From NCBI GenBank assembly GCA_045837725.1, contig JBEWZL010000089.1, positions 1 to 64,000 of the forward strand: 64,000 bases of DNA, read 5' to 3'. The DNA is from Vermamoeba vermiformis (taxonomy: Eukaryota). Shown one piece after another: positions 5,556-63,316 of this stretch (its first letter is position 1; each line of letters opens with the position of its first letter). A model generated the notes under the pieces. That model did no database searches. It was not told where the DNA came from and saw nothing but the letters and a program-made list of their open reading frames with translations. The position numbers were made by a program, and so were the translations under genes.

Positions 5556-8171
5556 ATGTCGTTGCTGGAATTACTATCACACACTCCAAATTCGTCGGAT
5601 CAGCGCGTCTTTTGGTACCAGTCTCTGACAGCAGCGCTCAATGCTCAGAATGTGCATCAATTACAATTCGCTAATATTCCAGTAAGTCCTACTATGATTA
5701 TGATCGCAATTACACTTCTCTAATTCTCAGCAACAGATTGGATCTGCGGACGAACAGCTCGCAGCGCTGCAATGTTGTATCGCAGCACTGGAACACGCGC
5801 ACAACAGTACACATAAAGTGGATGTAGCTATACGCATATTACAACAAGCCGCTCGCTATTGTCGCAGCGATGCAGTGCCGCACAAGTCAGATGTGGTGCA
5901 AACAGCGCTGATTGGTCTGTGCGCTGCCAGTACGCGCCTCGCCATGGAGTGCATGCAAGACAGTCCGCAACACGAGCGCGCACTGACCAAGCACATCTTA
6001 GAGCTGCTGATGCCGCTGATGGAGCAGCAGTGGTTGAGTCACGTGCGCGCCGAACACCACGCAGATCTGATTGCCCTGTGCGAGTGCGCGGTGGCACTGA
6101 GCAACAAGAATGTCGGCGCCTCTGCGGTGATGAATGTCACGTGGAAGATGATCAAGTGGTGCTTGAAAGAGACGGGTCGCTGTTTCGTGCAGCACGGTGC
6201 CAGTCACGTGATCGACACGCTGCAACACTCGCTCACACAACTGCTGCTCAGCGGCTACAAGCGCTACACACACCTGCGCGCACTCGCGGACACGGAGCCC
6301 AAGCTGTTGCTCGCCGTCGACAAGTCACTCAAGTTCTTGTTCCCGTGTCTCGTCGTCGTGGCCAACAACTATCGTAAGTGCCCTGCTGTCATGCCCATAT
6401 ATAGACACTCACACCCTGCACAGCGGATCTGCTCATGAATCACCTCGCACCCATCGCTGAACTCACGCAGCTCGTCGTGCCAGGTGCCAGCACGGACTCC
6501 ACGCGACAGTACTGCTACAAAGGGCTCATTACCATATTTAGATATCTCTTCAAATCACCGCACCTCACTGCCGCACAACACGAGCACGTGATCAAGCACG
6601 TGATTGCAGGCAACGGTCAGCTCACGATCGATCTTTTGACTGAACTCGCGTCACGTGTCACTGCGCTGTCCACTGATTGGCCAGTGCAGGTGTTGACATG
6701 TGTCATCGCACAGGTGATGCACACTGACCCACCAGCTGTAGATCTCGGCGAAATTTCTGCCTCACCAACGCCATCACCGACTCCAACTCCCCCACGTGCT
6801 GAAACACCTGTCATTCAACAATCTTTGCACTTCTTGACACACGTGCTGGCCTCGGCCTCGCCTGCAGAATGTCACGTGATCAGAGATCTGGTGGTGAGTC
6901 ACGTGCTTGATGTCAACTGGCACGTGTCACAACTGGCACTGCAGTGGTGGTGTCTGCTGCTTGACACGCATCGAGATCACAGCGAGATTTACATGCAGGT
7001 GTTGCTGGCACTCATTGAACGGCATCGACAGTGGACGCGCAGTGACACGTGTCAATCAGAGACTCTGGTGACGTCACTATTCGAGACACGTGCGAGTTCA
7101 CTGCTGTTGCACTCCCTCATGCACATGACTCCTGCACAACAGCAACGATTGGTGCAGATGATGGACGCACCACTCCGCGCACACCTCAGTATGACACCTC
7201 TCGGTTTGACACTCGCGTCACTCACTGTCCCGCACCCCTCGTTGTCACAACTCACGCGCACTGTGAATCATTCACTTGCAGAATTCTCTTCCACTGCCCC
7301 TGCACGCTTGGTACGTACCTCTCAATGACACGTGTCACTCACTTGCTGACACCTGGCACAGCTCGATCCACTGGCACAACTCGTCAATGCAATGTCAACG
7401 TCGAGTGACAGTAACGAATTGACAGCTCTGTTGACACGGCTATTTGACTGGTACGTCAATCTGACACCGAATGACACGTGTCATTACAGTGTCACCCTGG
7501 CACGGTTGTTGACGTATATGGCCATTCGTCTTCGCGTCTTCAGTTCTCCACAGCTCCCACAGGTCTGTGCTTTACAGTCCCATGTTTGACACCTCAGCTA
7601 ACACGTGTGACAGGTGTTGACGCGCATGACACAGCTCGTGACAGCAGGACACCGTGGCGTGCTCTACTTCAGTGCATTTGTCGCGCTGTGTTTGCAGCAG
7701 ACCAATGTGCCGGTAGTGCAATGTGCGGCACTGATCGCGGCACTGCTCGACGCGCAGCACAACTGGCCAATCAGACTCGCGACGCTGATTGCCCTGGCCG
7801 ATGTCGCGTCACTGATGCCAGCCCCTGAACTGCTCGAACAACTGCTCCTCGCTGATCAGCTGACTGCACTGCTCACATTCCTCGATCACGCCACACCGAG
7901 CACGGTGGATGTGAGTGCGCGTTTGACAGGTGTCACTGCCCTGCTTGGTGAGCTGCGCGTATCCCTCGCGTCACGTGTGGTGACAGGTGCCAGTGAGTCA
8001 GACCCTGACTCAGCGCTAATTCACACCACGCTGACGCACCTCGACACGGTGTTGTTAGATCTGCGCAAGATGACGCAGCACTGGTCGCACGAGGGCACGT
8101 TAGTCGCGTCACTGCGCAGCGTGGAGAGTGTGCTGCACGAGCTCCAAGGCAATTTGAAGCAGTGCGTGTAA
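5556..8171 (+). CDS. Helical-repeat protein, probable FIRRM/FLIP (C1orf112) homologue, multi-exon
   Basis: Spliced ORFs joined by GT-AG introns; VMNVTWKMI, LQWWCLL and LLDAQHNWPIRLATLIALADVA resemble recalled C1orf112-family blocks. Confidence 0.5.
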
Positions 8172-8329
8172 ATAGACTTGTATATAAACACCGTGGCGTA
8201 TTAATGCATGTTTATTGGTTGTATATTACAGGGGGGGGGGTATTCGCGAGTGAAGACGTACTAGTGCTGCTAGGCTTAACTATAGCACTGCTAGTCTGCA
8301 CTCCTCAACATGAACGAGCAGATCTGCGC

Positions 8330-9291
8330 TTAGCAGTCAATCTCAATCTCTTCGAGGCGTTGATTGAAGGTCTCGCCATTCATGCTCGGTTCAACAAGCA
8401 CTTCTCGCTTGCGATCAGTCACTTCAGGCGAGGACTCAATGCTGTGATTGCCGCGCACGTGTTTGAACTTTTGATGCAGCGCTGCGGCAATAATGGACGC
8501 TGGATCGTTGCGCGGTGTGGCTGCGGGGGTAGCTGCGCGTTGAATAGTGCCGCCAGGGGAGCGAGTGCCGTTGACCTTGCGCAGCTTGTCAGGGCCCGCC
8601 AAGCCTTGCGCAATCAATTGCGTGACTGACAGCGCGGATTTGGGCTCGTCAGATGCCTCGACAGGGCTGCTTTGTTGTACTCGTGTTAGCTTGCCACTAG
8701 TAGGCATTACTGGAGGAGGTGGTGGCGGAGCAGGAGGGGCCACTGTAACAGGTGGTGGCGTGACTTCAGGCTCGTCAGGCTTGGATGGGGCAGGTTGCAT
8801 GAACTTGGCAATTTCACTTCTGAGTCGCTGCAACTCCATCTCGAGCTGATCAATCTTGTTCATATCGACATCAGTGCTCTTAACAACAGCTGGTACGTCA
8901 ATTAAAGGCTCTGCAGTATCATTAGACTGCGGCAACTCATAATTGTCCTCAGCCATCAAATCCGCTCCAAACATGAGATCGTTCTCAGTGTCCTCCACAT
9001 AGCTCACTGCGCGCGAGCTGAATACTGCTTTGCGCTCTCCTCTTGTCTTTCTCTTCCTTGGTCCATTGTCTGTGGAGAATGATCTTCTAATAACTTTGCG
9101 TTTTGTGTCTTTTTTCTTCTGTATTGTAATATGTTAGTCAATCTATAGAGCATTAGAGTATATATAACCTTTCTATTTACAATTTTTGAAATGATCGGAT
9201 TGTGCACTACAAACTCAAACACTTCGTAGAGCTTTTGGCCAGTGATTTCGAAGAGTTCGAAGCACAATGAAGGAATAGACAACTGACTCAT
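8330..9291 (-). CDS. Mitochondrial fission regulator (MTFR1/2)-like protein, 2 exons
   Basis: KIDQLEMELQRLRSEIAK, polyproline, LRKV..RSPGGT and DPASIIAAALHQKF occur in the order of MTFR family motifs; an intron at ~9119-9168 restores frame. Confidence 0.7.
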
Positions 9292-10216: not shown

Positions 10217-13010
10217 TCACATCATCTGCGAGTCGTACGGCTTGGCACCGAGTGACTGGTTCTTGGCAGATTGTTTGGGTGGTTTCTTGTAGTGCTTGGA
10301 GAGCAGCTTGTCCTTGTTGTGCTTGAAGTAGATGCGCTTCTCATTCACATCGGTCTTCATCTGCAGCAGATGTGTCAGCGAGGGGTTCTGACCGAGGAAG
10401 TCCACCAGCGTCTTCTTCTTGTCCGCAGTGTCGTCAGGCTGTATCAGATAGTGGCGCACATTGCCCTGCCACTTGTACGTGATCACAAACTCGCCGTCGA
10501 GTCGTTCGCTCATGCGGATCATGAATGTGCCGTTGGACTCGTTGATCAGTTGTTCTTCTGCTTCGGGACCCGTGACAAATGCGCACAAGAATCTGAATAT
10601 AGAATCATGAGCAGGTGTTACATGCAGTGTGTGGCACACGAGAGACATACCCGTTCTCAAACAGCCACAGCAAGTACTTCTGATAGCGCACTTTCTTGAG
10701 CGCAGGGCCCACCCAGTCCCAGAACTTCTCGTATTCTTTTTGCGTCAACATCTTCTTCTCCGCTGCAAGCAGTGCTGTTAGTACATTGCGAGTGCTACGT
10801 GCACGATGATACGTACCAAAGGGTTTCTTGAACTTGGCCTTGATCATGTAGTCAAAGTCAGTGATGTACAGTGGGCGTCGTATATTCGAAATGTCTTGTT
10901 TGGTGCTCATCAAGAAGTGCTTCTGAAAGTAGTTCCAGAAGCGTTGAATGGAGATCTCGAAGCTGTCCTTGAAGCAGTCTTCTTTCAGCCACGCACCTGC
11001 TGCGTCTTTCCACTGCGAGCCCGTGTTGGTCATGGAGATGAAGGGCTTGGAGGCCACGGACTCGATGGTGCGTGTGATGGTCTGGTTGTCAATCACCACT
11101 TGCAGCACCACGCGGAACTTGATGCGCACCAAATTAGGGAATGTGCCACTCTGGAACTTGAGATCGTTGAAGACCGCCACGCCGTTCTCGTTGAACACTT
11201 GCTTGGCATTCTCGAGGTCTGCATTGTTGCGCTTGATGCGCTGCGAGGACTCGTAGAGCTCAGGCTGAATCGGACCACTGTGCACCTGCTGGACGGTGGC
11301 ACCAGTGAGCAGTCGAATGGTGAAGGGACCGATGGGCTTGTCTTTGAAGATCGGACCAGCTTGTTCTTGCACCACGCCCAAGTAGACGGGCACTTCGCGC
11401 GTGGGCAACATCATCGGGTGTCGCAGCTGTTCCACATCCATCTCGTAGAGTGCAATCTGCGGCAAGAGATAGGTCTCAATGAACTCCTCGAGCGACTGCA
11501 GTGTCTTCATGTCCTTGGCGAGCAAGAACTGCGTGTTGACGAGCTGATCGAACTCGTCCAAGTAGGTCTCGAGTTCATTGCGCAGCTCTTGTTGCTCCTG
11601 TTCAATGCCGTTCAAATCGTTCTGCATGATACGCATGCGCATCGTCTTGAGCTTGTTCTCCACCGTGCGCAGTCGATAGAGGTAGTGGTTGTTGTTCAAC
11701 TTCTCCACGGGGGGAATGGAGGGCTGGGCAGGGGGTTCTGCATTCTCTGCGTCACTCGCGCTGTGCTCGTTGTCCTCGTCTTCATCGTGCTCCACCGAGT
11801 CGCGCTTGCTCTTGGCCACGCGTTTGTTCTTGCGCGGCGGTGAACTCTTCTCGGCCTCCTCGCCCTGTCCGCTGTAATTGATCTGCGTGCGCTGTCGCTT
11901 GACAGGCGGGTACTCCTCGCTGGAGGACATGCTGGGATTGGCGTTGAGTGCGCTGGGCAGCTTGTTGACGACTGTCGCGCCTGCATTGAGCGGTGCAATC
12001 ATCTGACTGCCCTTCATCATCGGATGTGCATTGTACCCGCCATTGACGGCACCACCAGCCATCATATGCTGCTCCATCATATAGGACATGTTGTTGGGAT
12101 TGTTCTGAGGCACACCCGGTGAGTTCTCGTAGCCACCAGTGAGCATTGCAGTCAGCATGGAGGACGGTGAGGCACCTGGAAAACAGCGATTAGCCACTAT
12201 AATTAGAGCAGTGTATTAACAATAAGGTAACTTACTGAACTGAGGGTTGCCGTTTGGACCTTGTGGATTTGCGCCGTTTGGCGCTGATCGGATTTGATTT
12301 CTTTCTCTTGCGTCGAGTTGATCAATACCATAATCAGCACCAGAACTGTTGCTATAATATGATTCTGTCAGTTACAAGAATTTGTGCGTGTGGCATTTGC
12401 GGGGATAAGTTTATAATCGTTTCACTGAAAATAGTCCGAAGGAGGCGCGGCAAACTTACATTTGTTGCATCATGTTGGTAGGTACTTGTTGGTCCTCATA
12501 ATATGGGACTTGAGCTCCATCAAATGGATTGTCGCTGCGTTTTCGCTTTTGGCCCTTAGAATCCATTGGGATCTGCTCCAATAATTTAAATTAATATACT
12601 AGCATCTGGAAAATTAACTACAATAAATATGGACACCAAATATCGCACTAAAATGTAAATATTATTTTCTCTGAATGGCGAGTTAATGAACCATTCTCGG
12701 CAGCGTTGGTTGGGGTTCGATCCATTACCTGGAATTAGCTAGCTACTGATTGGAATAGGGACCACTTGTGGTAGCTGAAGTTATAAAAATAAACAACTAT
12801 CGGTGGTTGCGAAAACAAGGTATTCAGTAAACGCGCCAGGTTCCAAACGTTCATGAAAAATACGCATCAAGCAGCACGTGACTTGCCTAATTTAGAAACA
12901 TGAGCAAGCAATTTCACGAAACCTGCCTGAAACCACGATGATGATCACAAAGAGGAGATACGTTTCATGAATGATGATCAATACTTTACCGCGTTTTGCT
13001 TGCCTTTCAT
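10217..13010 (-). CDS. STAT-family transcription factor (coiled coil, Ig-fold DNA-binding domain, linker, SH2); 5' exons uncertain
   Basis: SH2 GTFMIRMSER..VRHYLI, DNA-binding domain AVFNDLKFQSGT..ESVASKPFISMTN, C-terminal Tyr (PYDSQ); N/M/P-rich N-terminus as in Dictyostelium STATs. Confidence 0.9.
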
Positions 13011-13215
13011 CCAGTTTGATTTCCGCTGAGAGCGCACCAATACCGCTTGTACGTTTCAATCGCTAGCAATTCGGCCTATATCAAGCATGATTAGTTCACT
13101 TCTTATGATACCCTCGAGGGGTGTTGTTTCGGTTACCTTTGCCATTCAATTTTAATTCACGGCACGAATCCAACAGTTAGAGTACCGCGGTCTATTCAAT
13201 CACCGTGTAGTAGTC

Positions 13216-15471
13216 ATGAATGCGCAAGAGACTAGTGCGCTCTTGACCTCTTTGCAGGCCATGTTCCCGCAGCTGCCGCACAGCACGATCCAATCTGCAG
13301 TTCAGAGCGCCAAGTCTAACGACGAGGCCATCAATATGTTATTGGAAATTCAAACTAAACAGGAGAGGTAACGGTTATTAGATCCGAGTACTGGCGCGAT
13401 TGAATTAGTTGTTATCGAAATTTAGCAAAACTGAAAAATATTTAATCGAATTTACTCCGCAGTGCCAGCGACGCACCCGCCACGAGCACCAAGCCAGACA
13501 ATGCACAAATCGTTGTTGCAAGTACCACTGAGCCAGCAAAAGAGGACAAACAAAGGGCGCGAGGTCGATCGGTGGTCAGTCGTTCCGAGGCACTCAAGCG
13601 CGCACTGAGCGAGTTACATGAGCGCGACTTGCGCCACTGGTCCACGAGCGAGCTGTTGGAGCTCAATCATCTGCTCGCCTCCACTTCGCTGCTCGTCACT
13701 ACGCAGATGCAGTCTCGATTGGGCATCAAGCCGCAACACGATGAAAGTGAGACTATAAATAGCACCAATTCACTGAACAGCAGTGCCAGTCACGTGCACA
13801 CACCGCTCACTGGCAGCAACGGAAATTCACCGCGTGTACGACGACGTCAAGATTCAGTGAACAGCGTATCACGTGACAGTACAGGGACACGTGACAGCAC
13901 AGGAGCACGTGACAGCACAGGAGCACGTGACAGCACGGGAGCACGTGACAGCAACGACGACGAGTGGGTGGTGATGGAGGGTCAGCCACGTGCCACCGAG
14001 TCCTCCACACTCAAATCCACGCTGCAGAAATTGACCGCGTGCAGTGTCAAGGGCTGTACTAATTTGGGCAATGAATCGTGTCCGAGATGCAAGGCGAGAT
14101 TTTGTCGAGATCACGCGAGTCTGCTGATGACATCTACCCACGTGACGCGCGGTCAAGTGCTGTGTTTGACATGCTGCGATGACATGGTGCAGAAGATTGG
14201 TGTCACGCGCACTCACACAGGTCAGCATTGTAGCACTGTGTTTATATAGTAGATATATATATATAGATATGATACTTGTATATGTGCAAGAACTAAGCAC
14301 GTGATGTCACACAGGCCTCTATTTGACACTGCGCCACAACTTGAATGGCACGGCAAATGAACTCGTGCAAACACATCGCGACAAGATGCAGCCGCGCATC
14401 AAAGAGCTGGCGAGTGTAAGTGATTCATGAATGAGGTGTTCAGTGAATGGCGAGCTGATGCTAAAAATAGAAACCGTTCAATCCGATCGATTCACTGACC
14501 TCCATGCTGCCGTTCAACAACTTGATTTTGACTAATAAGGACACTTGGACCACGTGCTCGCAGTGCGGGTCAGTAGTTGACAGCTACCACATTGACACGT
14601 GTCACTGATTCATCTACCAGGGCCTATTTTGATCGTCTGTCACTCAAGCGGCCCTGTCGCATCTGTCCGCAAGTGTTCTGCGTACGACACACGTGACCAG
14701 TCAGCGGCGTGGCTAATCGTAGTATTGTTATTATGTAGGGGCGCTGTGACTCGCAGCTGCAAGTGCGCAGTTTCAACGTGAAAGAACTGTTCAGTGAACT
14801 GCCGTCACGTGTCATTGAAGAGGAGGTCTGCGCCAAGTGCAAACGTGTCATTGACAAGATGCGCCGCAAGAACAAGTGGCACGTGATTCAAGAACAGTTT
14901 GCAGCCAAGTATGGACTGTGCTTAGTGCGGCATTCACTGAATTAACCGAGCTATTTTTAGACCTGTGGTGCAGATCTGCAGCAACAAGTTCGACAAGTAC
15001 CTCAAACTGAAAGCTGAATCTCAGCGCGATCTCGACGAAGATGCAAAGAAACAGCTGATCAGTGACGCACGTGCCCTGGCTGAAGAACTGCAAACATTGC
15101 TGATCGATCAGGCCAAGGTGCTCACTCAAGCGGAATTACTGTTGTTTGCACGTCTGCGACAGAGCGTGATGCTATTTATAGCACAGCTGAGAGACGATAG
15201 GACAATGGAAGATTGGAGTGTGATATTGCCTAATAAGGAAAAGATCATGACGATGAGCGTGCCCATCCAAGTCAGTCGCGAAGAAGTGATGACGTCATCG
15301 CCCAGTCCTAAAAATAACCTCAATCGCATGCACTCGTCCATCGTACTGGGTGAAAAAGACACAACGAGTGCAAAGACTGGTTTGACACGTGTCAGCTCGG
15401 TGGTGTTGACTGCCAAACACGGCACTTCTCCGCCCCACTCACCACCGCACGAGGAGGACACATTCGAGTAA
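13216..15471 (+). CDS. CUE-domain and Cys/His zinc-finger (FYVE/B-box-like) protein, multi-exon
   Basis: N-terminal LQAMFPQL..AINMLLE (CUE); several CxxC clusters (CPRCKARFCRDH, CLTC, CRICPQVFCVRH, CAKC). Confidence 0.7.
13870..13953 (+). repeat. In-frame 18-bp tandem repeat (~4.7 copies) encoding RDSTG(A/T)
   Basis: cacgtgacagcacaggag units visible directly. Confidence 0.95.
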
Positions 15472-15682
15472 ATAAAATGTATTATAGTATGAAATAGCAT
15501 GGAATAGCATATTGTCTATTCGGCTTTATTTGCAAACAACAATATCACGCAGCTAATGAGGTCGAGTGCGCCAATCATCGTGGTCAGTGACCTCCTCGTG
15601 GTCCAGTGCGGTCCTAGCTGAAGGTTTGCGTTAAGTAGTCGAGTTGCCTCGCTGTGCTCTCCAAGGTGAAGCTTGCTACTTA

Positions 15683-17039
15683 TTATTGCTTCAAGTCACC
15701 AAACAGGGTCACTGAGGGCACCATTGACACGTGTCACTCGTGCTCTACCTCTAGCTGCAGTGTTCTAATGTAGCGCTCTCGTTGTGACACATTGCCACTG
15801 ACACCACCTGTTCATAAATGTAATTTGGTTAGTCACGAATGGCAGGTGTCAAACACTGACCTGTGTGAATGTACAGCAGTTCTGAAGTGTCAAACAGCGA
15901 CTCTTGTTCGAAAATTGCGCGCCAAGCTTTCAGTGAATAGACCTGTCAGGTGTCAAAATCGTTGCAGTACGGTGACTGACGCTTACCATATCGAAGTCGA
16001 TACCAAATTTGGCAATTGTTTGGTGCACTTCCCACAAATCACGATGTGGCTTGGCAAATCTGTATCTGTGTTTGGTGGTCAGCACGTGGGGCAGCGTGTC
16101 AATGCCCGAAGTGTCTGTTTGACACTTTGACATGCGTGTCATGTCATCCAACAGACTTTGCACGTCACTCACAACTGGCACTGCGTAGACTGTGACGCGG
16201 GTCTGGGTTTGACACGTGTCACGGAGCATTCTCTGCAAATAGTGATGTACAAAATAGGCAGTGGCACCTGTCCCAGCAGGTACAACAATTGACACGTGTC
16301 GCTGTGGCAGATGTGTCGTGATAAATTCGTGCAAACTTTGCGCGAGCTGTTTGATGCCGAATTCAGCGGCCATGAATTCTTCCGCTCGACCTATTTTTAG
16401 CTGTGCATCCCTCGCTGGGTACTCTAAACTGTGAAAGGGTCAGATTCAGTGAACAAAAATTTCAGTGAATGGCATACAATCGCTGATGGGCCTCGGCTTC
16501 AGTTTGACACTCGATCACGTGTGCTCCGAGATTTCGCGTCACGTGCCAGTTACTGTCCGCAGTGCTGTCGAGGGCGCGAGGACTGACACGCCTGTCAACA
16601 CGAGAAGTCAGTGCGAGCGAGGAATTGACACGTGTCACAGAGCGTACTTGGTGAAGTAAGTGAACTGCGCGTTGAATTCGCGCGCCAAATGAGCCGCAGC
16701 GAGCATGAGATTGGATTGATTGCCGCCATAACTCACCACTGTGCGCCACCGCTGCGGATTGACACGCAGTTCATGAATAAAATAGTGGAGCTTGCGGTAT
16801 TTATTGCCGGGATAATAGGGCGATAAGAGGTCATCGCGTTTAATATAAATTAATTTTTTGTTGTATTCGACCACATCCACTGGTGAATCGCCAGTCTGTG
16901 GAGTATTAGTCTTATTAGAGCGGTATGAAAATATAAGTAAACAATTGCAACTTACCTCTATTCGTGTGAGTGAACTCTTGAATCGACAATGGCTTACACC
17001 ACATCTACGACGAACCGAGTGCACTAATTGTCGGAGCAT
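15683..17039 (-). CDS. PLP-dependent ACC deaminase / D-cysteine desulfhydrase family protein; 3' end approximate
   Basis: IYIKRDDL..GNKYRKL, SYGGNQSN, VVPAGTGATA, HTGGVSG motifs; possible N-terminal presequence. Confidence 0.85.
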
Positions 17040-17148
17040 TAAACAACTACTTGTTTCAATGTGGTGGACTCAATACAATAGCGTATTATTGTAAGAACAA
17101 CAGTTTATTTACAAGTGACTGTACAAATCTACCAGGGCACTTGCCTAA

Positions 17149-20100
17149 TTAGGGCAATGACAGCAGTGCGCGGTCGAGTGGTTCAGTGCACGCTGCACGT
17201 GCCAGTCGAAGTAATTCCGCCGTGTCCGCGAGAGTCTTGTTCGGATCCGTCAACCAGGGCAGCACTCCGTTGAACAGCGTCGCGTACTGGCTCAGCGGAG
17301 AATTAGCTGCTGCGTACTGCGCGAGAAGTGTTGCCATTTTAGGCGCATCACGTGACAGAGGCTGCTGTCTCGTACGCACGGTCTTGCTGTCACACTGTGA
17401 CTTGAGCCACGCGCTGAGAGTGAGCGCGACAGCACGGACAGCGGGGGGATGACTGTACGCACTCATACCAAAAAAGGCAATCAGTCCGCCACCTTCACGG
17501 GCATCTGCGAATTTGTGCAACCATTCCGCAAGGTGATAGAGCGCGGTGACAGCTTTGTCGGAGGTGAGTGTTTGACACTTGTCGTAGAGCAGTTGAATGG
17601 TCTTGGACACGAGCAGCAACACTTTCATCTCTTTGCCTTTTATGGTGCGAATCTGATTCGTCCAGATCATCAGCTTGCTCAGCAGAATGTCAATCTGTGA
17701 CACTTCGTGCGGTACTCGGTTTGACACTTGCGACACAAAGGTGCAAAGAATGATCGCGGCACCGCTCTCGACACAGTGCTGCAAAAATACATCTTGCCCG
17801 ATCTAAATATAGCGCGGTTAGTCGATACAGCTGCAAATATTCAGTGAATTCAGACGTACATCAGGCACGAGCAATGCGTGCTGCAAACGCGTCCAGTTCT
17901 GATGCAGCAACAGATCTGCCTCGAGACACGCTTCAATCAGCGCGACTTGTTTCTGCTCCGAGGCAATGGACAGCGCGCAGGCACGCACCAGGTACAGCGC
18001 TGTGGCCTGCCAGATCGGAGCACGTGCCTCCAAGTGCTGAATGAGGTCGCTGAGTGACACTTTGTCCGTGAGATTGAACACGCGCAACAACACGTGCAGC
18101 AGTGTCGTGATCAATTCTTCCGCGCGCGCACTCTCCGCACCTCCGAGCAGACCTAGCAGTGTGCCAGTCACGTGCTCGACGGCTTGGATCACGTGACTGA
18201 CCATGTGCGCACTCACGGCATTGCCTATTATGGGCAAGGAAATGAATGCGGCCACGAGGGCGGTGTGACACTGAATGCGCGGAATTTCGAGTGAAATCAC
18301 GTGATTGATCAGTGCTTCGGCGTGTGTGATCACGTGATTGATCTGCTGAATTGGTGCAAACACTGCGCCGATGAAATCTACGATAGCAGTGACACGTGTC
18401 GCAAATGTCGCGTCACGTGCCATCTCTTGTGTGACAGGGCGGTAGCGATCGATGAGATAAATTTGGAACACGTTCAATTCTTGCAAAGTCTTGTCGGTCA
18501 CGAGGTGCCAGGGATAATTGCGTGCCAGAGCGAAGAACGGATCCAAATCGAGCAGTGGTGGCACATTGTCAGCGTGCACCGTGAGGTACGCGAGACAGCA
18601 CGACAGCAGCAGGGCCCAATAGCGCTCTGAGACCTCGCTGACTCTCTCCCAGGGCACTTGGCGCAGCACGTGACGCAGCGAGAAGAACAGCAGCAACGGC
18701 TTCTTGTCACGTGACTGCACGCTGTCGTCGTTGTAGTGGTAGTACAGATTGACGAGTGACAGCAGTTGTTCCGAGGTCTGCGCGTCAGGTGTCAACTCCT
18801 GCCAGGCCACGTGATCGAACATGTCGCAGAACAGCTCGACTTGGTGCGGTGCCAGCAGCGAGGTCATGCGTGTGACACCTGTCACTGGATCGTGCGCGAG
18901 TTCTTTGGCACACCACCACTGCCACAGTCTATTTATAGCGCGGTGGTGGGGCAGCAGTTTGTGATAGGTTGCGAGGTGTGCCATCAGTGCTGTCAACACG
19001 TCACGTGCTTCGCGCTGTTGTTCCGCACTCCACGCTGGCATTGTGTTCTCTTTCACGGGGAACAGCCAGCAGTCGTAGAAAGTGAGCATTGCTATATTTG
19101 GCAAGGTGAGTTCAGTGCTGGTCACTCATTGACAGGTGTCACTTACCGTCCAGCAGCGCGGTGTCGTTGAAGCCAGGCTCTTTGAGACATTCAGTGAACA
19201 GTCTGTCAAACAGCTGGAACAATTTCTCGCGATAACTTTGCAACACTTCGTACAGCGTGTGTTGTTTTTTCTAAATTAGGCAGTCAGTACGCGTATATAC
19301 CTAATCGGGCAATGTTACTTACGTGTCGCTTGATGGTCATCAAGTACTGATTTAACCAAATTAGGATGTTGATCAGTTGCGCAGATTTGAGTCGTTCACT
19401 GAACGGCAGTGCCAGGATGATGTCCCAGACACGTGGATCAATCTTCGCGCGACGTGATTGGTCCGCCACGAACTGCAGAGTGGCGTGCACGTGACGCGGC
19501 CAATCAGCACGTGACAGCAGTGCGAAGTGCGACAGCGTGACCTGGAGCGGGAGATCGAGCACTGACCCTGGTGGCGCACTCTTGGCGGCCACACTGCCCG
19601 ATAAGGTAATCAGCTGCGCGACATCAGTGACAGCAGGGCCCGTGCTCAGCCATCGCGCGACATCAAAGCGGCGGAACAATGTCGCGGTCAACTGCGGGTC
19701 AAATTTAGTCACGTGCTCGACTGCAATCTTGTAGCACGTGATGAACTGGTCGGGGGCTATATTTGGATTGAAGTGGTCGACGAACAGTTGCAAAGACTTG
19801 CTGTCGCGCAACACACTGGTCATGAACTGCGTCACGTGCTGCGCTGCTGTCGCCAAGTAGTCACGTGCCAGCTGAGTGAGCACGTGCTCGAACAACATGC
19901 GACTCGGAGGATAGGCCGAGACAGCAGCATTCATGGCATTGTGCATCCAAAAATAGAGCATGGTGGCACTGTCGAAGAATTCTTTTCGCTTCTGCGCGTC
20001 ACTCTCGCTCTCGTAGCGTGCTGTCAACTGCAGTACTGTCAACTCCACGGTCAGCGGGTGCACGCACAGCTCTTCGTCCACCACGTAGTCCACGTGCGCA

Positions 20101-25159: not shown

Positions 25160-25413
25160 ATTTACAATATTTACAATATGAGCGCACCGTATTGGTCTTG
25201 GAGTGAAATTGCGGTGGATCGGCGCTCAATATTTTCGGCTAATACCAAATCGATAATAAATATACACAAATCACCAATAGTGGTGCAACTAATATTTACA
25301 AGTGAATTAATAAGGAAGATTGACCCGCTCCCAAAAATGATGGAATTTCACGTGCAACAATAACACGAACGGAGTTGGAGGCGCTTGTTATTTATTATCA
25401 ACCTATAATAACT

Positions 25414-26396
25414 ATGACAGACCACATGTCTACTCAATCACAGTCGCAGTGCTCGTTAGTGCAATACACCGCTGTACGCAAGGTGCTCAAGTCAGATACC
25501 ATGTTCAGAACCCTTGGCGTCACACGTCAAGCCAGCACGAATACTATCAAGCGACAATATAAGAAAATATCACTGTTAGTACACCCTGATAAGAACCCAG
25601 CCCCTGGTGCAGAGGAGGCTTTCAAAAGTACGTTGGATCCTCGTTGGCAAATTACAACCACAGAAATAATTTCAAATTTCAAATTCCGATTTTATTCTAT
25701 ACAATTTACGAACACGACACGTGTGTATATTCAACTTGTGTAATCTTTTCAATTTTCGTTCGAGTTACTCCGTAATTATTTTACGATTGCATTTTATGAA
25801 AATATGACGAATTATGCCCTACCCGCAACTGTTTATTGTTCATTATAATATGCACGACTATTTTATTACATTACAATACATTCATGTCCACTAACTCTCG
25901 ATCAGGGGTCAACAATGCCTATGACATTCTGCGAGATCCAGAGTCGCGTTCTCGTTACGCAGCTGTCGTGTCAGATCTGCGCGGCCAATACCACGCCAAA
26001 GTCAATGCTCGACGCGAACAACGTCGTGAAGAACGAGAGCGCGCAGTGTCAGATCTTGAGCGCAAGAAGAGACCGTTGTTCTTGGCGCTGATTCTGCTGC
26101 CAGTGCTCGTGTTGACACTTTGGGGCTGTTACTCGCTGCTGGTGACGCGCAGCACTGGCCAGGCCTCGACTGGTGCACGTGACCCTTCAGGGCTGACGTG
26201 GCTGTCCCTCACTGGCCCCACAGAGTCTCACCCACACGTGTATCACTCGCGCAGTGGTCTCGCAGTGTACGTCACTCAGCACGTGTGGCTAGCACTGCAC
26301 GTGTCAGACTCGTCGCGCACGCAGATGGAAGAATTGATCGAGAATGTCCTCGCTGAACTCACGCGCGCTCAAGCCACATCCACGCCAGTACATTAG
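25414..26396 (+). CDS. J-domain membrane protein (DNAJB12/14-like), 2 exons
   Basis: YKKISLLVHPDKNPAPGAEEAFK / VNNAYDILRDP; transmembrane segment LFLALILLPVLVLTLWG. Confidence 0.85.
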
Positions 26397-26611
26397 CACA
26401 CTGCGATATAGAGTGACCAGTCCTCCTGTCCTGTTGACATCAGCTCAGTCACATGCATCAGATCCACTCCTGTTGTGTCCACTTGCAGTTCCCTCCACAC
26501 GAATAGAGTTCAGCACACTGCAGTCCCTGCACCACAGCTTGCTAGTCCCTGTGACTAGTGCGTGTACAAACACGAATAAATTTATTTACAAGGTGCACTC
26601 GCAGTGCTCAA

Positions 26612-47133: not shown

Positions 47134-47177
47134 ACGAATACTCACCCTCGATTCTGTGTTCCAACTTGCCAGCAACT

Positions 47178-49046
47178 TTATTCGAATTTCTCGAGTTCCA
47201 AATCGATGAATGCAAAGTACATCTCGTTGTATCTGTTCCACTCGTCTTCTACGAAAGTGTTCGGATCTGGCACTACTGGTGGTCCTCCTTGACCGAATCT
47301 AATACAAATAAGCAATCACACTATACACCATACTTAACGCATTTAGATTACCTGAACCGCATCTCTTCATCGCGCCTCTCTTGCTCTAACTTCTGATAAA
47401 AGAATCTCTCTGCGTCAGCGCCAAAGTACTTGGGTCCGTAGCCACCAAACAACAAAAACACGCGCTTGTTCAACTCAACTTCAGCATCAGCACCCTTCTG
47501 CTCGAGATAATATTTGCACGGATTGTATTCTAACAACTCTGCTGAGCAACATGCGCGAGGATTAGGCACTTTCTTGCCTGCGTGTTGTGTTAGGACTGCT
47601 CTGTCAATGCAAGCAGCACGTACCCACTGACTTGCATTTGAACCACGTCCACGTCTTCAAATCGAGTTTGTACATGTGTTCGAGGAATGTCTCGCCGTCG
47701 TGACCGCCGAAGCACCACAGCGCTAATGAAGGACACGTTAGTTGTCTCAGCACCGCGACAGAAAGTGACAGTTCAACACTACCTTCAGGCGTGTAACAGA
47801 CTGCTTGACCTTGTGCTGGCAATGGTCGTTCACCTGTTGTTACAGTACGGCTCCAAGTGTGCGTCTTGAAGTTGAACTTGTCAATCTGTCATACAATTTG
47901 ACACGTGTCAGTCACCGTTCTGCACCACTCACTACACGTGTAACGTACCTCGTTAAAGTGCAAAAATCCAAGCTGCAAATCATATCCACCCGCACCACCG
48001 AACAACAACAGTTCATCGCCGTGAATGACAGTCGAGTGCGTGTGTCTCTTGCGCGGCACTTCACCGCGCTGATCGACAATCTCCCACAACAGTCGCGGCT
48101 CAGCTTCGAACAAGGAATGCAGCGGCAGTCGCCACATGTCGTTGAAGTGTTGTTTGTGGTCCCAGCCTCCGAACACGTACATCACTGGCAGAACAGTGAG
48201 TGCATTATTATTAATATATGAACTCGCTTATATATTACTATTGGTTGCTATACTGCTACGTACCGTCCTCATAAATCACGCAGCTGTGAGATTTGCGCCC
48301 GATCACATCACCTTCAGTCGGTACACGGCGCCATTCATTGGTCTCGAAGTTATATAAATACAATTGCTTATACACTACTTGGGGTATTCCTGTGCGCACT
48401 CCTCCGCGCCGATCTGCGTGACTTCTGCCGCCTAAAAAATCAGATCTGAGCATTTACTTTGGTTGTTGAGCGTTACGTACCGAACACAAGCATGTGATCT
48501 TTATATACTACACCTGTGTGATCACCTGACACGTGCAAGGCCTCGCCTACGGGGGTAATACGCTCCCACAGACGTAATTTTATGTCGTAGCGGTACATGC
48601 GATCGGAAGACCAGCCTGGCGTCAGATGAGCGACGAGCAGAGGATAAATCTCGATTCTGGTACGTACCTCGCGATGAACCACCATATATATACAAATAAT
48701 CCTTGTCGCCTTTAGTCCAACGGACCATGCTGTGACCGTGAAGACCTGCAGCACGTTGATTAAAAATTTGGTAATTCCAGTTATTATGATAATTTATGGC
48801 ATATTAATATATCACTATAAACAGCATTGCGGGCCTATTGGAATTGTTTGAATATTTTTTTTGAATTAAAGTCATAATTCACAAACCTTCAGGCTGAAAT
48901 TCACTTTTATATTTGATCTTCTTCCATAACAGAGGTGGGTTATAATACTTTGGTTTCTCAGGTTCAGGTTTGAGCCTAATGGTATACTCAACGACTTCTT
49001 CCGAGTCACTTTCGTTCGGACTTGAATCCTGCGGATTTCTCTCCAT
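47178..49046 (-). CDS. Kelch-repeat protein, multi-exon
   Basis: Repeated YIYGG/VFGG/LFGG blades with R..HS motifs and terminal Trp. Confidence 0.9.
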
Positions 49047-55422: not shown

Positions 55423-57098
55423 CTACAGCTTAGCCTTTGGCTCTTTAGTGGTCTTTTTATTTATATTCGCGCTATCCGCGTTGAAATCGAATTGACCGCC
55501 ACGCCCTTTCTTGTCGAAGATGAATGCTTTGGCTCCTTCAGCTTGTAATGCTACAAGAAAGGTGTTAGCGACAATTATCACGTGACACTAGTGACTACGT
55601 ACTGGGCACTGCAAAGTTGAATTCTTCTTTGAGACCCAGCAACAGCGGTGTTCCTGTCATTCTCATGGCAGCATAGGCGTTGTATCGATCAGCACGGAGA
55701 CATTCCTAGTGCATATGAGAGGAGTGGCACAAATGTTAAATTTTTTTTTGAGATACGTACTTGTGGGAACTGTGACAGAACTCGAGCAATGTTCAGTGCT
55801 TCGGCGAGGCTCTATAAGCATTCATTGTAAGGGCACTACTGTCGCACACAAGTGACACTTTGACACGTTACCTGACCGTCAGCCACCACTCTGTTTGCAA
55901 AGCCAATGGCTAGTGCTTCCTGTGACACGGGTCAGTAACGCATTTTTAGCTAACAGTAAGTACGCACCTCAGCATTCACTGCACGACCAGTCAATATCAG
56001 GTCCTGTCACGCATTAGTAACGATGATTTGACAGCGTGGAGTCGAACGACGTACCAGAGCACGTGACAAGCCAATCAGGCGCGGCAGTCGGAATGTTCCG
56101 CCGTCAATCAGTGGCACGCCCCATCGTCTGCAAAACACTCCCACTGAGGCACTTTGTTCCACTGAGAACGATTAGCATTAGGGGTCGGATGTTGACAGGT
56201 GTCATAATCAAAGGTGTTATTTACTTACTGACTCGAATATCACTCCACGCAGCAATTTCAATACCACCCTATATTAACAGTAAAGATGATGCTAGAGCTA
56301 GATATCTTATTGACGTACTGCCACGGCAAATCCAGAAATAGCTGCAATGACTGGTTTGGTCAAGAACATTCTATCAGTGCCATTGTTTAGTGTAGCTCAA
56401 TGGCGAATGGAATGCATGCGCGAATGTCATACCTTGATACACCTAATGGCGCTGTATTGTCGAATATTGCCTGTTTGGAGTAGTCGTATTCAACTGGCTT
56501 GTTCTGTTCTTCGGATAATACGACCGGCGCCAGTTGATTAATGCTTAAATGTTTAATGCGTTAATCAGCGATCCATATAGTAGTTATGTTGGGCTTATTA
56601 CTTTTCTCCATCGTTCGTGGCAACGCTTCGGAGATCTGCACCGGCGCAAAAATTTCCTCCTGGTCATGAATGGTTAAAATTTCAACTCAAATAAGACCTG
56701 TGCATATTATATTACCTGTTCCTGTCAATACCGCGACTCTGGCTTCGGGATCTTTCTCGAATTGTTCAAAAGCCTTACCTGTAATTTTAACATTCATTGA
56801 TAATTCATTCGTTATATTTTATCATTTAATTGTGCCTTACTTAATGCGTCGGCTGTTTTTCTGTTAATAGCGTTCCTTTTGAGTGAGAAGTGTCAGATCT
56901 AATTTTTTGGCGGACATTGTGATAGTATTTAGAGGCAAAGACGCAGATATTGAGTATTCAAAGACATGAAAAGTGCATAATTTCATAACGAAGGTATAAT
57001 ACACATTGGGGCTGATATTGTTACCTCACATCTGGTCGTGTGATCGAAATTATCCAAATAAACTGATCCTCTTTTTTAATATCCACCAAATCTTCCAT
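55423..57098 (-). CDS. Enoyl-CoA hydratase/crotonase family protein with C-terminal PTS1 (-AKL), many short exons
   Basis: FCAGADL, AISGFAVAGG, RRWGVPLIDGGTFRLPRLIGLSRALDLILTGR; ends ...PKAKL*. Confidence 0.9.
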
Positions 57099-59509: not shown

Positions 59510-60944
59510 TTATTGTGAGACCCAACCACCGTCAACATTCAAAGCGACACCTGTGCGTGCATTAGACTATAAGCAGATATGATATTCAAGTGACACGTAC
59601 CAGTGATTTGATTGGACGACGGCAAGCAGAAGAACAAGACACTTTGCGCCAAGTCCTCAACACTCACGAACTGCTTGGAGGGCTGTTTCTCTTTCAACAA
59701 CTCAACGGCTGCTTGTTCGATGGTCAAGCCCGTGTGGCCAAATGACAGTTAGTTGACACGTGTCATTTCGAGACTTATTAAACTTACGTGCTCCTTGGCC
59801 TTGGCTTCAATTTGCTTCTCAACGAGAGGTGTGCGGACCCAACCAGGGCACACGCTGTTGATGGTCACACCAGTGCCGGCTGTTTCGAGGGCCACCTTTT
59901 GAACTATCGTCAGGACTAATGGGCTAGTCATGATAACAATTGATTGCTACTTACGACTTTAGTGAAGCCAACTAGTCATCGAATAAGAGTGAATTAGTAA
60001 GGGCTGATAGATACTGAGTGTGCATCAGACGTACCAACACCGTGCTTAGCAGCGACGTACGCAGACTTGTTCGCAGAGCCCACGAGACCGTGCACTGACG
60101 CAATGTTAACGATGCGACCGAAGCCTTGTTTCTTCATGTGCGGCAAGAGGGCCTTGGTGCCGTGAAAGACTGACGAGAGATTGATGGCCATGATGTCTTC
60201 CCACTTGTCCTCTGCACTCAGTCGTTAGAACACATGTTGCAATACCATTGAGGGACTGAATACAGACCTGGGAACTGATCGACAGGGGCCACGTGTTGAA
60301 TGCCCGCGTTATTCACCAAGATATCGACTTTGTTGCCCGAGTTTTGCAGCGCGAATGCAGCCAAGTCACGAATTTCATTGGCATTGCGGAGATTGGCGCC
60401 GTGATAGAACACTTTGACTTTGTACTCATTGGCCAGCTAGCATTACCAAAAATAGAAAATTTAGTATTAAATTCTTATGGACGAGACATCATGAACGGAA
60501 TGCGCTGTATATATAATATATATTACCTGGTCTTGCAGCTTCTTAATCTCAGCTTGATCACCAAAACCGTTCAATACGACGTTACAACCCTAAATTGAAG
60601 TCAGATCCTGCCATTTGGTTACAACCAAATAAATATGACTTACTTGGCTAGCAAGTGCCTTGGCGATGCCTTGGATAATACATAACTGTTAGTATATTCG
60701 GCGACAATTTATTTATTTTTAAAATACCTAATCCAATGCCGCTTGTAGAGCCAGTAACAATTCCGGTTTTGCCCTCTAAGAATCTATTCGATAAATTTAT
60801 TATTAGTCAACAATATTTGAGCGAATCTATTCCGTTCTATTACCTCTTAGTGCCGAACAAAGTTCTTTTCGTTGACACGGGATGTGACGTTTTTGACACG
60901 ATAGAGAGGAGAGTTCTCGAACCGGCAATTGATCTATTGAACAT
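59510..60944 (-). CDS. D-3-hydroxybutyrate dehydrogenase (bacterial BdhA-type SDR) with mitochondrial presequence, multi-exon
   Basis: VTGSTSGIG, NNAGIQHVAPVDQFP, ASVHGLV..KSAYVAAKHG, CPGWVRTPLVEKQI. Confidence 0.92.
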
Positions 60945-61111
60945 GGTGTGTGTGTAGTATAATCGAAGTGAGATATGAATTGTTTTTTCGGTCTAAATTT
61001 GATGACAGGCAAAACCACGTGCTTATTTTGTGTCCTTTCATGATCACGAGATTTACCTTTTAATTAGCCTAATAATAATGATACATAATACCACACTTGC
61101 ATAGTATCAGT

Positions 61112-63316
61112 ATGGAAAAATTCGGCTTCAAAAAGCCAGTAAACTCAGAATCAGAAGTTTCGATCTCTGATCGGCTTGTGATCAGCTCAAGAATGAATGC
61201 AAAGCCAGCCATATGCTATTCAAAATGTAGCATTCCATATAGTTCTAAAGATGCCTACTTCGGTACGTTCTAATACGACTCATGAAAATTATGTTTCTTT
61301 CCCTTCCAAATGCCAAGTTTAGCTTTTATTTAATTTTACTAATTAATTTGCTTATTATTACGTCGATAACGCATTGTAAGATTACTTACGGCCGAATTTA
61401 AAATGATTTATCTGAAATTTAAGCAATTCAATTTCAAAAGTTTTTGTGAATTCGATTTGGGCCTTGTACTTGCTTCCTTTGATTTGTATATAATCAATCC
61501 GTTCTTATATACCATTATATAGAATTGCAAGTACTATTGCCTGGAGAAATCGCTATCGGGTTCGCGATCGCGGCCAAGAAAGAGATGAAGAGGCGCGAGT
61601 ACGGATCTGCAACATTCAATCAAAGTAAGACAACATACCAACCGAACCGCCTTTAATATGATTTATTGACCGTTACATCAATCAAGATTCGTTCTATTAC
61701 AAATCCAAAGACGGCATCATGATCGGAAATTTTAGCAAGCGGATTACCGCGGACTGGTTCTCATCGAGCTACAACTCCATCGGTGACACTATTGGCTGCG
61801 CTATTTCCAAAAATGGTAATAGAGATATTACGCTGCTTCTTTCAAAGTTAACTCGGAGTATTTTTCTTACCAGGTGAGTTCATCTTCGTGTCGCGGGAAG
61901 GCATCAAATCAACACTCCGTCCGAGACGCACTTTGACAGGTGTCACTCTCGTGCCGTTCATTGTGGTCGGCGAGGGCGCGGCTGTTGCGGTCAATGTTGG
62001 TCAATTGAAATTCAAACACCACGGCCTCGGTCTCGGTCATCCAACCCGCCTGTTGACACGATCACGTGACACCAACACAGCTCCGAGCAGCGTGTCAGCA
62101 CCGAGTGGCGTGGTGGCACGAGGCAATCACGTGACATGCGTGGTCGAGCACAATCAATCGCGCACGTGTCTCGCGAACAGACCTCTCGTGCTCAACGATG
62201 CACAACAGGTGCCGTACTTTGAAGTCAAATTCACGCACGTTGAAGGACTCGTGGCCGTGGGTCTGTTGCCCACTGACAACCAATCACTGCACCCGCCCTC
62301 ATCAGTGGGCCTCGCGAACAACGGCAACTGTTATGTGCACTCCAAGTACGCGCGGTGGCTGGCGTCCTATCAAGCCAATGACGTGATTGGCTGTGGACTC
62401 GCGACCAATTCGTTCAATCAGCTCTCGGCTTTCTTCACCAAGAACGGTCAATTTTTAGGTACGAGTAGCGTGCTGTAGGTGTCTTTCAGTGCCTAACCAT
62501 GCCTTAGACTTTGCTCCCGGTACTATCTATAGACCACGTGATGTTGTGCCAGGCGTCAGATTGGCGGGACAGTGTTCCGCAACGATGAATTTTGATCGCG
62601 AAGACTTTGTTTGGGACATCAATCAGTGGCCTGTCTTCGATCAAGTCAACTACTTCTCAGCCCTGCCCATTGAATTACAATCGCGCATATTGATGGTACG
62701 CCTATTAATTCTTTTAGATGACTATTGTAGTATATCTAATGCCTCGTTTAGTTCTCCGCCGAAACTAAAAGCTTTGCGTGTTTGAGTTTAGCTCTCGTGT
62801 GCAAAGAATTCAGTGAACTGGCGCACATGAATGTTGTATGGAAAAGACTGTACTTGAGAACATTTCCCTTTCAGAACAAGAAACTGCGCGTCAGGAATTG
62901 GTACAAATTCTTCAAACGACGATTTGTGCACGAGCGGTACTGGGGCAAGACGACATTCGAGTCGTTGTCAATAGGTAAGCGAATATGATTATTTAATACA
63001 TCTCAAGTACTTATGAGTGCCTAAAAGAGAACTGTAATAAGTGCGATGACAAGTGCCCCATCACGTGGCGCGAGTTGCAGCTGACAACACAAAGCGACAT
63101 TCGAGTGTGCAACGCGTGCAAGAATCGTCGACTCGTGTACTTGGTGCAAGACCCCAATGCGTTGAAAGAACACTACGACAAGGGCCATCTCGCTGTATAT
63201 AATGTAAGTCCTAGGGAGATGACACTTCGACACTTTTGATGACACGTGTCACTTAGAATACCCAGCCCAAGCTCGAAGAAGTGTACAACTGCAACGTGCC
63301 CAACAAGCTGCACTAG
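61112..63316 (+). CDS. SPRY-domain and F-box protein, multi-exon
   Basis: PYFEVK..DVIGCG..FFTKNGQFLG; F-box FSALPIELQSRIL..LALVCKEF. Confidence 0.85.

Follow-up and report, generated by a model that had tools for sequence, protein, structure and literature searches.

Genes and palindrome copies in the window

We analysed a 64,000-nt stretch of Vermamoeba vermiformis DNA (contig JBEWZL010000089.1 of GenBank assembly GCA_045837725.1, positions 1 to 64,000 of the forward strand), referred to below as the window, in which the 12-bp palindrome TGACACGTGTCA and its core hexamer, CACGTG, recur through exons and introns. Unless other DNA is named, motif counts refer to this stretch. The window is nuclear DNA of an amoebozoan-like eukaryote. 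Its gene structure over 5-25 kb is documented by transcript contigs of the public RNA run X6 and by RNA reads of a 95-99% similar strain. Among the 15 of 31 joints listed, the introns are of the GT..AG type and measure 44-62 nt, apart from one of 229 nt; they start with GTAAGT or GTACGT, and their branch regions resemble CTAAC/CTGAC. Further introns were predicted wherever a stretch of 38-90 nt began at its 5' end with GTA, contained a branch-like word, ended in YAG and, once removed, joined open frames.

The core hexamer occurs 135 times, where about 16 copies are expected for uniform bases, and is distributed in blocks. Two stretches of the window are dense (about 6 per kb), 5.7-8.6 kb and 12.8-26.9 kb; the density is moderate over 37-64 kb, and no copy lies within 8.5-12.8 kb or 27-37 kb. 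The two dense domains, together with an unmarked gene that serves as contrast, are as follows (UTR, untranslated region; GC3, GC content at third codon positions).

5704..8629, dense domain 1: + strand gene or genes of a family without a name, rich in CACGTG and in His-Val
12800..26900, dense domain 2: five or more unrelated genes from both strands, introns and UTRs included, 86 CACGTG
10608..12215, − strand: STATa-type contrast gene, GC3 0.72, 0 CACGTG, 0 His-Val

Dense domain 2 comprises a zinc-finger-like gene (+), a gene at 14.4-15.5 kb (+), a gene for a pyridoxal phosphate (PLP) enzyme (−), a large unnamed gene at 17.1-25.2 kb (−) and a gene at 25.3-26.9 kb (+). Pfam named few of the marked genes, and the distant homologues of the large − strand gene, about 2500-2700 residues long, gave no family name. 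The contrast gene has two domains known from Dictyostelium-type STATs, the STATa immunoglobulin-like domain and EF-hand_12, and its best named relative is from Arcella.

The exact copies of the 12-mer, and the variants with a GG/CC centre, are found at the following positions (ORF, open reading frame).

7043..7054: exact copy in an exon, read as D-T-C (transcript piece 6765-7309, ORF 6405-7325); DTC in 4 of 5 relatives
7326..7337: exact copy in the confirmed intron 7311-7361 (+), a GT..AG joint in a transcript contig
7472..7483: exact copy in an exon, read as D-T-C (transcript piece 7361-7558, ORF 7350-7586)
14593..14604: exact copy outside ORFs of at least 70 codons
15383..15394: exact copy in ORF 14941-15468 (+), read as L-T-R-V, class by ORF only
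15725..15736: exact copy between two convergent genes, in a UTR or spacer
16210..16221: exact copy in the PLP-enzyme gene (−), ORF 15933-16439, read as D-T-C
16626..16637: exact copy in the predicted intron 16592-16647 (−), whose removal gives one open frame
20591..20602: exact copy in an exon of the large − gene, read as L-T-R-V (transcript piece 20045-20964)
20986..20997: exact copy in the confirmed intron 20965-21017 (−), a transcript joint
21154..21165: exact copy in ORF 21008-21445 (−), read as M-T-R-V, class by ORF only
21433..21444: exact copy in the predicted intron 21426-21482 (−), 7 nt before its 3' end
21676..21687: exact copy in ORF 21482-21817 (−), read as L-T-R-V, class by ORF only
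44044..44055: exact copy in the predicted intron 44011-44058 (+), the terminal CAG directly after it
47899..47910: exact copy in the predicted intron 47886-47948 (−), also in the + open frame 47769-48218
59754..59765: exact copy outside long ORFs
63240..63251: exact copy outside long ORFs, in an intron-like context
7924..7935: variant TGACAGGTGTCA in ORF 7611-8168 (+)
18873..18884: variant TGACACCTGTCA in an exon of the large − gene
19130..19141: GG/CC variant in the confirmed intron 19092-19146 (−), 5 nt past the 5' splice site
20711..20722: GG/CC variant in an exon, read as L-T-G-V-T (contiguous transcript piece), retained in two relatives
21809..21820: GG/CC variant in the predicted intron 21806-21852 (−), the terminal CAG directly after it
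23643..23654: GG/CC variant in ORF 23530-24345 (−)
56193..56204: GG/CC variant in a 104-codon + open frame
61934..61945: GG/CC variant in ORF 61852-62475 (+), which has a SPRY domain

The D-T-C copy of the PLP-enzyme gene (16210) sits in a 12-residue insertion relative to PDB chain 9jqf_A, and the copy at 20591 falls within an indel-rich stretch that differs in relatives.

Enrichment of the 12-mer

The 17 exact copies of TGACACGTGTCA compare with a mean of 0.01, and a maximum of 1, in 100 dinucleotide shuffles of the window. The wider pattern TGACASSTGTCA has 25 matches, made up of the 17 exact copies and the 8 with a GG/CC centre, while the shuffle mean is 0.03. Between TGACA and TGTCA arms the central dinucleotide is CG in 17 cases, GG/CC in 8 and TG in 1, and a GC centre between these arms has 0 copies in the window. 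Words that differ from the 12-mer by one mismatch number 16, eight of them being of the GG/CC class. The initial annotation of this DNA, made from its letters, had reported at least 17 exact copies, at least eight TGACA(GG/CC)TGTCA variants and several 11/12 matches; we recovered every one of the 17 and of the eight.

Counted on both strands, the 12-mer is present 34 times, against Markov expectations of 1.94 (order 5) and 5.08 (order 6), and this null is conservative because a model trained on the window already contains the motif. The 17 ORFs of the dense blocks (3979 codons) hold seven 12-mers, compared with 0.32 after synonymous-codon shuffling, which preserves both protein and codon usage, and 0.00 after codon-order shuffling (300 shuffles of each kind). 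The flanks of the copies are unrelated, with a mean identity over 60 bases of 0.296, against 0.283 for random sites, and a maximum of 0.533 that lies inside the control range. The palindrome does not extend past 12 bp, the complementarity of its flanks (2.2/8) being that of chance. A transposable element, a miniature inverted-repeat transposable element (MITE) or an introner is ruled out by the unrelated flanks and the lack of an extended palindrome. A protein motif is ruled out by the use of two reading frames and of introns, and by an enrichment that survives the synonymous shuffle. We conclude that the 12-mer is not a transposon, not a protein motif and not an effect of composition. This agrees with the initial annotation, which had argued against a dispersed element from the flanks and against a protein motif from the frames x-D-T-C-x and L/M-T-R-V, both of which we confirmed, and which had proposed the Markov, codon-shuffle and extended-flank comparisons given here.

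Some core copies do belong to local repeats. An 18-bp coding tandem repeat at 13870-13953 (4.7 units, each beginning with CACGTGACAGCA) encodes an RDSTGA-type peptide repeat and supplies about five CACGTG copies, and a short internal duplication places core copies at 20499 and 20565. Such cases are what one would look for if there were no special signal at all, and the copies came from local composition, from a repeated protein motif or from transposons and repeats that have decayed into fragments. Against this stand the flanks, the two frames, the introns and the null models described above, and also a gene of higher GC3 that has no copies and a codon usage that is equal inside and outside the blocks (see below), and we regard its probability as negligible.

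The CACGTG core, codon choice and protein sequence

Behind the 12-mer stands a much larger enrichment of CACGTG, of which it is the complete and unconstrained form. Long open frames contain 114 of the 135 core copies, and full 12-mers account for 9 of these 114, compared with 8 of the 21 core copies outside long ORFs (p = 9e-4). The full palindrome surfaces in DNA free of coding constraint, exons mostly accommodating the core only.

Within the 17 dense-block ORFs, CACGTG occurs 80 times, against 28.8 ± 3.9 in the synonymous shuffle and 10.7 in the codon-order shuffle. The synonymous choices that create it are close to exceptionless in these ORFs. The His codon preceding GTG is CAC in 39 of 39 cases, and the Val codon following CAC is GTG in 39 of 40. 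Arg in the context xCA-Arg-G is written CGT in 36 of 36 cases, about four of which come from the 18-bp tandem repeat (the share of CGT elsewhere is 0.22); A precedes CGT-G in 36 of 40, and Thr in the context xxC-ACN-TG is ACG in 5 of 5. The silent form CAT-GTG was found once in 46 His-Val contexts, whereas elsewhere CAT has a 26% share among His codons. Of the 53 His-Val pairs in 41 ORFs, 45 are written CACGTG, compared with 35% from codon usage (p = 7e-14).

The pressure is also visible in the protein. The 565-codon ORF of the large − gene has 17.7 His-Val per 1000 residues, and its close relatives have 12.6-18.9, while most of 72 distant homologues have 0-5, near the expectation from the product of His and Val frequencies. 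In the dense genes His-Val dipeptides are inflated about 8-fold. Four short or partial distant homologues reach 5.6-9.2. At the nine alignment columns that hold His-Val (HV), none of the 15 aligned distant homologues has this dipeptide. Both codon choice and protein sequence are thus bent towards the motif, as His-Val, Thr-Arg-Val and Asp-Thr-Cys.

Marked blocks and unmarked neighbours

Relative to expectation, CACGTG is enriched 8-fold in the dense region and 2.2-fold in the sparse region. The per-ORF z score against the synonymous shuffle is 2.3-6.7 in 12 of 15 block ORFs (for ORF 6405-7325, 10 copies against 3.9, z = 5.3); outside the blocks it is about 0 for most ORFs, with two at 2.8 and 4.0 that have 1-2 copies each. 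In dense domain 2 the gaps between successive cores are roughly exponential (median 94 bp, coefficient of variation 1.18), and no periodic or nucleosome-scale spacing was found.

Three further explanations were considered and rejected. GC3 is not the cause, as the STAT gene has the highest GC3 and yet no copy. A foreign-island origin is ruled out because, with the motif masked, dense and sparse ORFs share the same codon usage. CpG methylation is ruled out by the observed/expected ratio of CpG, which is about 1 in every 2-kb bin except the first (0.38 at 1-2000).

Elsewhere in the window, a tRNA-Leu(AAG) gene at 46230-46312 adjoins a tRNA-Phe(GAA) gene at 46583-46655, both on the + strand.

Copies in exons and introns

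The motif had been described in the initial annotation as written through exons and introns, and RNA bears this out for both. Introns that are spliced out contain the copies at 7326 and 20986 as well as the 19130 variant, and contiguous transcript pieces contain, as exonic sequence, the copies at 7043, 7472 and 20591 and the variant at 20711. Confirmed and predicted introns, which make up about 5% of the window, hold 6 of the 17 exact copies, a concentration of about 7-fold (p = 1e-4). The exact copies at 14593, 15725, 59754 and 63240 are outside long open frames and were assigned to neither class. In four of the eight motif-bearing introns (21426-21482, 21806-21852, 44011-44058 and 47886-47948) the motif ends 3-13 nt before the 3' splice site, so near that its first TGAC could act as a yTrAy-type branch point.

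The intron concentration and this terminal position are what a signal at the RNA level would predict, whether it worked in the pre-mRNA as a splicing enhancer, as a small hairpin or as an element of the branch site or 3' splice site. However, the half-sites are used in both orientations relative to transcription (TGACAC 23 against GTGTCA 31; GTCACG 26 against CGTGAC 26), as is the asymmetric GG/CC variant (5 against 3), which favours a reader of double-stranded DNA and disfavours an RNA signal. In addition, the palindrome lacks an extended stem, most CACGTG copies are exonic and in frame, and 12 of the 15 confirmed introns listed are spliced without carrying the motif. We consider an RNA-level signal very unlikely.

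A 14-mer, CTGTTTGACACTTC, occurs exactly three times, each time on the − strand (15884-15897, 20999-21012 and 23299-23312), two of the occurrences being near intron 5' ends. With at most two mismatches it has 8 matches, against 0.78 expected, and it resembles a single half-site of the palindrome in extended form.

Symmetry of the site and transcription factor families

The base directly 5' of CACGTG is A in 41, G in 40, T in 40 and C in 14 cases. TGA-CAC accounts for 47 of 270 half-sites and is found on both sides of 17 sites, compared with 4.1 expected (p = 8e-7). This excess of paired half-sites indicates that the two halves are read together, in a dimer-like manner. The arm word TGACA is itself enriched, TTGACAC being present in 53 copies, and the half-site word GTTTGACACTT has 8 matches with at most two mismatches, against 0.78 expected.

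A symmetric site of this kind resembles the targets of known factor classes. CACGTG is the E-box or G-box of bHLH-Zip and bZIP proteins, it is contained in the CLEAR element GTCACGTGAC, and the plant abscisic acid response element (ABRE) is ACGTGTC; these are promoter elements with a few copies per gene. The sites share with our motif the CACGTG/ACGT core and the dimeric symmetry, and the 10-mer GACACGTGTC contains an ABRE-like half. TALE-homeodomain proteins (MEIS/PKNOX/TGIF) bind, as dimers, TGACAG(C/G)TGTCA, which has the same TGACA-N2-TGTCA arms; the minor variant TGACAGGTGTCA (8 copies) is one of these two forms. The papers retrieved with the 10-mer GACACGTGTC are plant promoter studies.

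Ordinary cis-regulation of co-expressed genes by E-box/G-box, CLEAR-like or TALE dimer sites would account for the core and the arms, for the co-occurrence of both half-sites, and for marked genes that adjoin one another and whose marking is gene-specific in relatives. It accounts poorly for a density of about 6 CACGTG per kb over 14 kb, with copies lying within gene bodies, mostly in long open frames, and for codon and protein rewriting at a scale that is not known for regulatory sites. Moreover, the 5' T that MiT/TFE factors need is not preferred and the flank preference required of E-box, G-box and CLEAR sites is absent. With respect to TALE sites, the CG centre dominates (17 copies) and the GC centre is missing, while CACGTG is enriched on its own with many different flanks. 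We therefore see cis-regulation as an unlikely explanation.

Relatives and other DNA

The comparison with relatives was made at the protein level. For two marked genes, relatives at 69-97% identity retain the His-Val pattern: 47 of 54 window-relative comparisons keep the dipeptide, against 0.705 for all dipeptides, the comparisons being non-independent and one HV being an intron read-through. The STAT relatives show no excess, with no His-Val in the three closest (P0001-P0003, 70-95% identity) and one each in 8 of the 31 listed, about the expectation from His and Val frequencies. The distinction between marked and unmarked genes is old.

RNA runs X21-X23, which bear the same species label and are 95-99% alike, cover the STAT gene about 20-fold and the motif-dense genes at most 2-fold, while the X6 contigs cover both. 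Strains may have diverged more in the dense block.

A metagenome scan for two copies 130-160 bp apart returned 48 loci, mostly tandem repeats or other organisms. Nine non-redundant, non-repetitive contigs (39.9 kb, GC 0.42-0.49), none of which overlaps the window, show GTAAGT/GTACGT intron-like contexts. They were selected through the motif itself; apart from the pairs that served for their selection they contain 6 exact copies, 4 variants and another 41 CACGTG. Matching pairs of metagenome contigs are 99.9-100% identical, so no divergence between orthologues could be obtained from them. In the loci L012, L039, L001/L009/L010/L014/L041, L019 and L003/L018/L032 the 12-mer is part of short tandem or satellite units, with periods of about 27-36 bp or about 140 bp and up to 14 copies in 1.5 kb.

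In viral contigs, three scans found 0, 2 and 1 loci. A link to giant viruses is rejected, since all three loci carry prokaryote-style genes and probably belong to tailed phages. These contigs have exact 12-mers at intervals of about 1 kb, with 10 in L049 (13.9 kb of a 52-kb contig), 8 in L050 (7.7 kb) and 9 in L051 (11.3 kb of a 17-kb contig). Portal and terminase genes identify L049 and L050 as tailed phages, and L051 was judged by its ribosome-binding-like context alone. The copies have conserved flanks of their own, TTTTG...CAAA in L049 and ATTTT...AAAAT in L050; they are mostly intergenic in L050, and in L051 the word often lies across TGA...ATG gene junctions. The iterated palindrome of the phages is independent of the amoeba case.

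Proposed explanations: selection for a dimeric reader or a neutral drive

The observations reveal a pressure for TGACACGTGTCA and CACGTG that is exerted on DNA and is strand-symmetric, dimer-like, domain-restricted and old. That the signal is at the level of DNA follows from the unrelated flanks, the Markov and codon nulls, the saturation of synonymous opportunities, the clade-specific His-Val and the absence of a transcription-orientation bias. The initial annotation had proposed a DNA-level code, and in this respect codon nulls, saturation and orientation sustain it. Three points modify the picture: the 12-mer is part of a much broader CACGTG enrichment, the marking within the window is block-wise and not evenly spread, and the 12-mer is concentrated in introns.

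The explanation that we prefer, with a probability of roughly 40%, is a dimeric reader of TGACACGTGTCA together with selection for a high density of its sites in the marked domains. Under this explanation the 12-mer would be the complete site recognised by a symmetric protein dimer on double-stranded DNA, and would consist of an indispensable core, CACGTG, and two TGACA arms. Copies would not be inserted but created in place, by point substitution wherever the sequence permits, and would then be held against decay, notably against the silent C-to-T change at the central CpG. Such a pressure would fix nearly all synonymous opportunities and shift proteins to His-Val, Thr-Arg-Val and Asp-Thr-Cys. 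It would be directed at certain blocks of neighbouring genes, including their introns and UTRs, hardly affecting adjacent genes, and at the same genes in related species. The high density of sites may allow the reader to coat or tag chromosomal domains. We infer that the reader protein exists, that selection rather than repair bias maintains the motif, and that the sites tag a domain.

The alternative is a neutral drive, in which a repair or modification enzyme corrects near-cognate mismatches to CACGTG or to the 12-mer during gene conversion, and the motif builds up as a functionless by-product in places of frequent conversion. The enzyme could be a methyltransferase acting together with a mismatch-specific endonuclease or glycosylase, or heteroduplex repair could itself be biased; either would follow the logic of HIP1 (see below) or of very-short-patch repair. 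This is nearly as likely as selection for a dimeric reader. Deterministic correction would yield the almost exceptionless synonymous use of the dense block, including the CAT-GTG count of 1 in 46 against 26% CAT elsewhere. Apart from CACGTG, which is enriched, and the splice-site-linked TACGTA, all NACGTN words fall to 0.13-0.82 of their expectation in the dense as well as the sparse region. In addition, the blocks could mirror the landscape of conversion, and individual sites turn over.

Other observations are less easily reconciled with a drive. CATGTG is at 0.21 of expectation in the dense region, but CATG (0.39 dense, 0.58 sparse) and CATATG (0.24) are low as well, and the scarcity of CATGTG is unspecific, CATG being depleted across the whole window. 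Several other one-step neighbours of CACGTG, which a drive should drain, are enriched instead (CACGAG 2.3-fold, CAGGTG 1.9-fold, CAAGTG 1.55-fold). The marked or unmarked status of genes is constant in relatives down to about 70% protein identity, so the conversion landscape would have to be very stable. Finally, a graded specificity over 12 bp with a tolerated GG centre is more like that of a DNA-binding factor than that of a repair enzyme.

Other 4-base palindromes are also below order-1 expectation in this window: besides CATG, CCGG is at 0.29 in the dense and 0.49 in the sparse region, and CTAG at 0.39 and 0.62. ACGT, apart from that within CACGTG, is at about half of expectation.

Several points weigh against the dimeric reader. 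All of the features that we list fit a motif-specific bias of repair or gene conversion equally well, and the almost complete use of synonymous opportunities arguably sits more easily with a drive than with selection acting on site density. The sites lie mostly within gene bodies, which is unexpected for ordinary transcription-factor sites. Three block ORFs of low GC3 (0.38-0.46) have no CACGTG, and the marking of one gene block but not of its neighbours is left unexplained. The conservation of HV is just modestly above background, and in the stretch 6405-7310 the window has recently lost two HV that the 97%-identical P0107 retains, to QV (CAGGTG) and HM (CACATG), among about nine differences.

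A further step from the dimeric reader would be a eukaryotic domain-tagging code, in which a homodimeric reader coats selected multi-gene blocks at about one core site per 165 bp. We put this forward tentatively and find it somewhat doubtful. The tag would serve a purpose at the level of the chromosome, for instance a chromatin state, the control of replication or recombination, or the distinction of own DNA from that of ingested giant viruses or bacteria, and the demand for sites would rewrite codons, introns and proteins over long evolutionary time.

Comparison with known systems

HIP1-type palindromes have been known from cyanobacteria for three decades and are unexplained. They include HIP1 (GCGATCGC) and other highly iterated palindromes of cyanobacteria (Elhai 2015, PMC4390886; PMC13756078). 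The amoeba motif is like HIP1 in being a short exact palindrome far beyond Markov expectation, with unrelated flanks, placed in several coding frames and in non-coding DNA, and retained in related lineages; for both, a function and a drive by methylation or repair are the competing explanations. The differences are that the present motif belongs to a eukaryote with spliceosomal introns and has a 12-bp site with a 6-bp core and a tolerated GG/CC centre, and that it is confined to blocks within the window, with almost saturated synonymous opportunities, whereas HIP1 is spread over genomes. The likeness to HIP1 suggested by the initial annotation is thus upheld for the Markov excess, the dispersal and the sharing by relatives, and within the window the signal is block-wise.

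Among other bacterial systems, the uptake sequences (USS/DUS) of Pasteurellaceae and Neisseria, and Chi, are words of 8-12 bp that occur about once per kb in genes, shape peptides and are maintained because protein machinery reads them on the DNA. Unlike the present motif they are bacterial, genome-wide, mostly non-palindromic and often orientation-biased, and none of our observations ties the motif to DNA uptake or RecBCD-type repair. In E. coli, very-short-patch repair shapes CCWGG/CTWGG, enriching a methylation-site palindrome and depleting its deamination product; that effect is modest and genome-wide, whereas here the depletion of the deamination product is unspecific.

Eukaryotic parallels come from C. 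elegans, where 12-bp pairing-centre motifs are read by ZIM/HIM-8 and the MEX motif acts in dosage compensation. These too are iterated words of about 12 bp that mark a chromosomal domain for a DNA-binding protein, as we propose here, but they are mostly non-coding, far sparser and spread over megabase domains, and we know of no codon rewriting associated with them.

What sets the motif apart from HIP1-type palindromes, uptake and Chi words, E-box/G-box sites and TALE sites is its eukaryotic host, its arrangement in blocks, the near-saturation of synonymous opportunities and its presence throughout introns. A literature search found no description of this motif behaviour, or of an iterated palindrome in a eukaryote, among the papers retrieved, although further papers may exist; the initial annotation had likewise known of none. 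As far as can be told, the finding is real, strong and undescribed.

The block-wise marking places marked and unmarked genes side by side, and these serve as internal controls within one genome. The near-saturation of synonymous opportunities makes the strength of the pressure measurable, and the introns display the site as it looks without constraint. A practical caution for annotation and selection scans is that the His-Val and Thr-Arg-Val of marked proteins reflect DNA and not protein function. A repair or conversion drive, should that be the true cause, would be sequence-specific, unusually strong and able to reshape proteins. A reader protein, if there is one, would represent a new way to mark chromosomal domains in eukaryotes.

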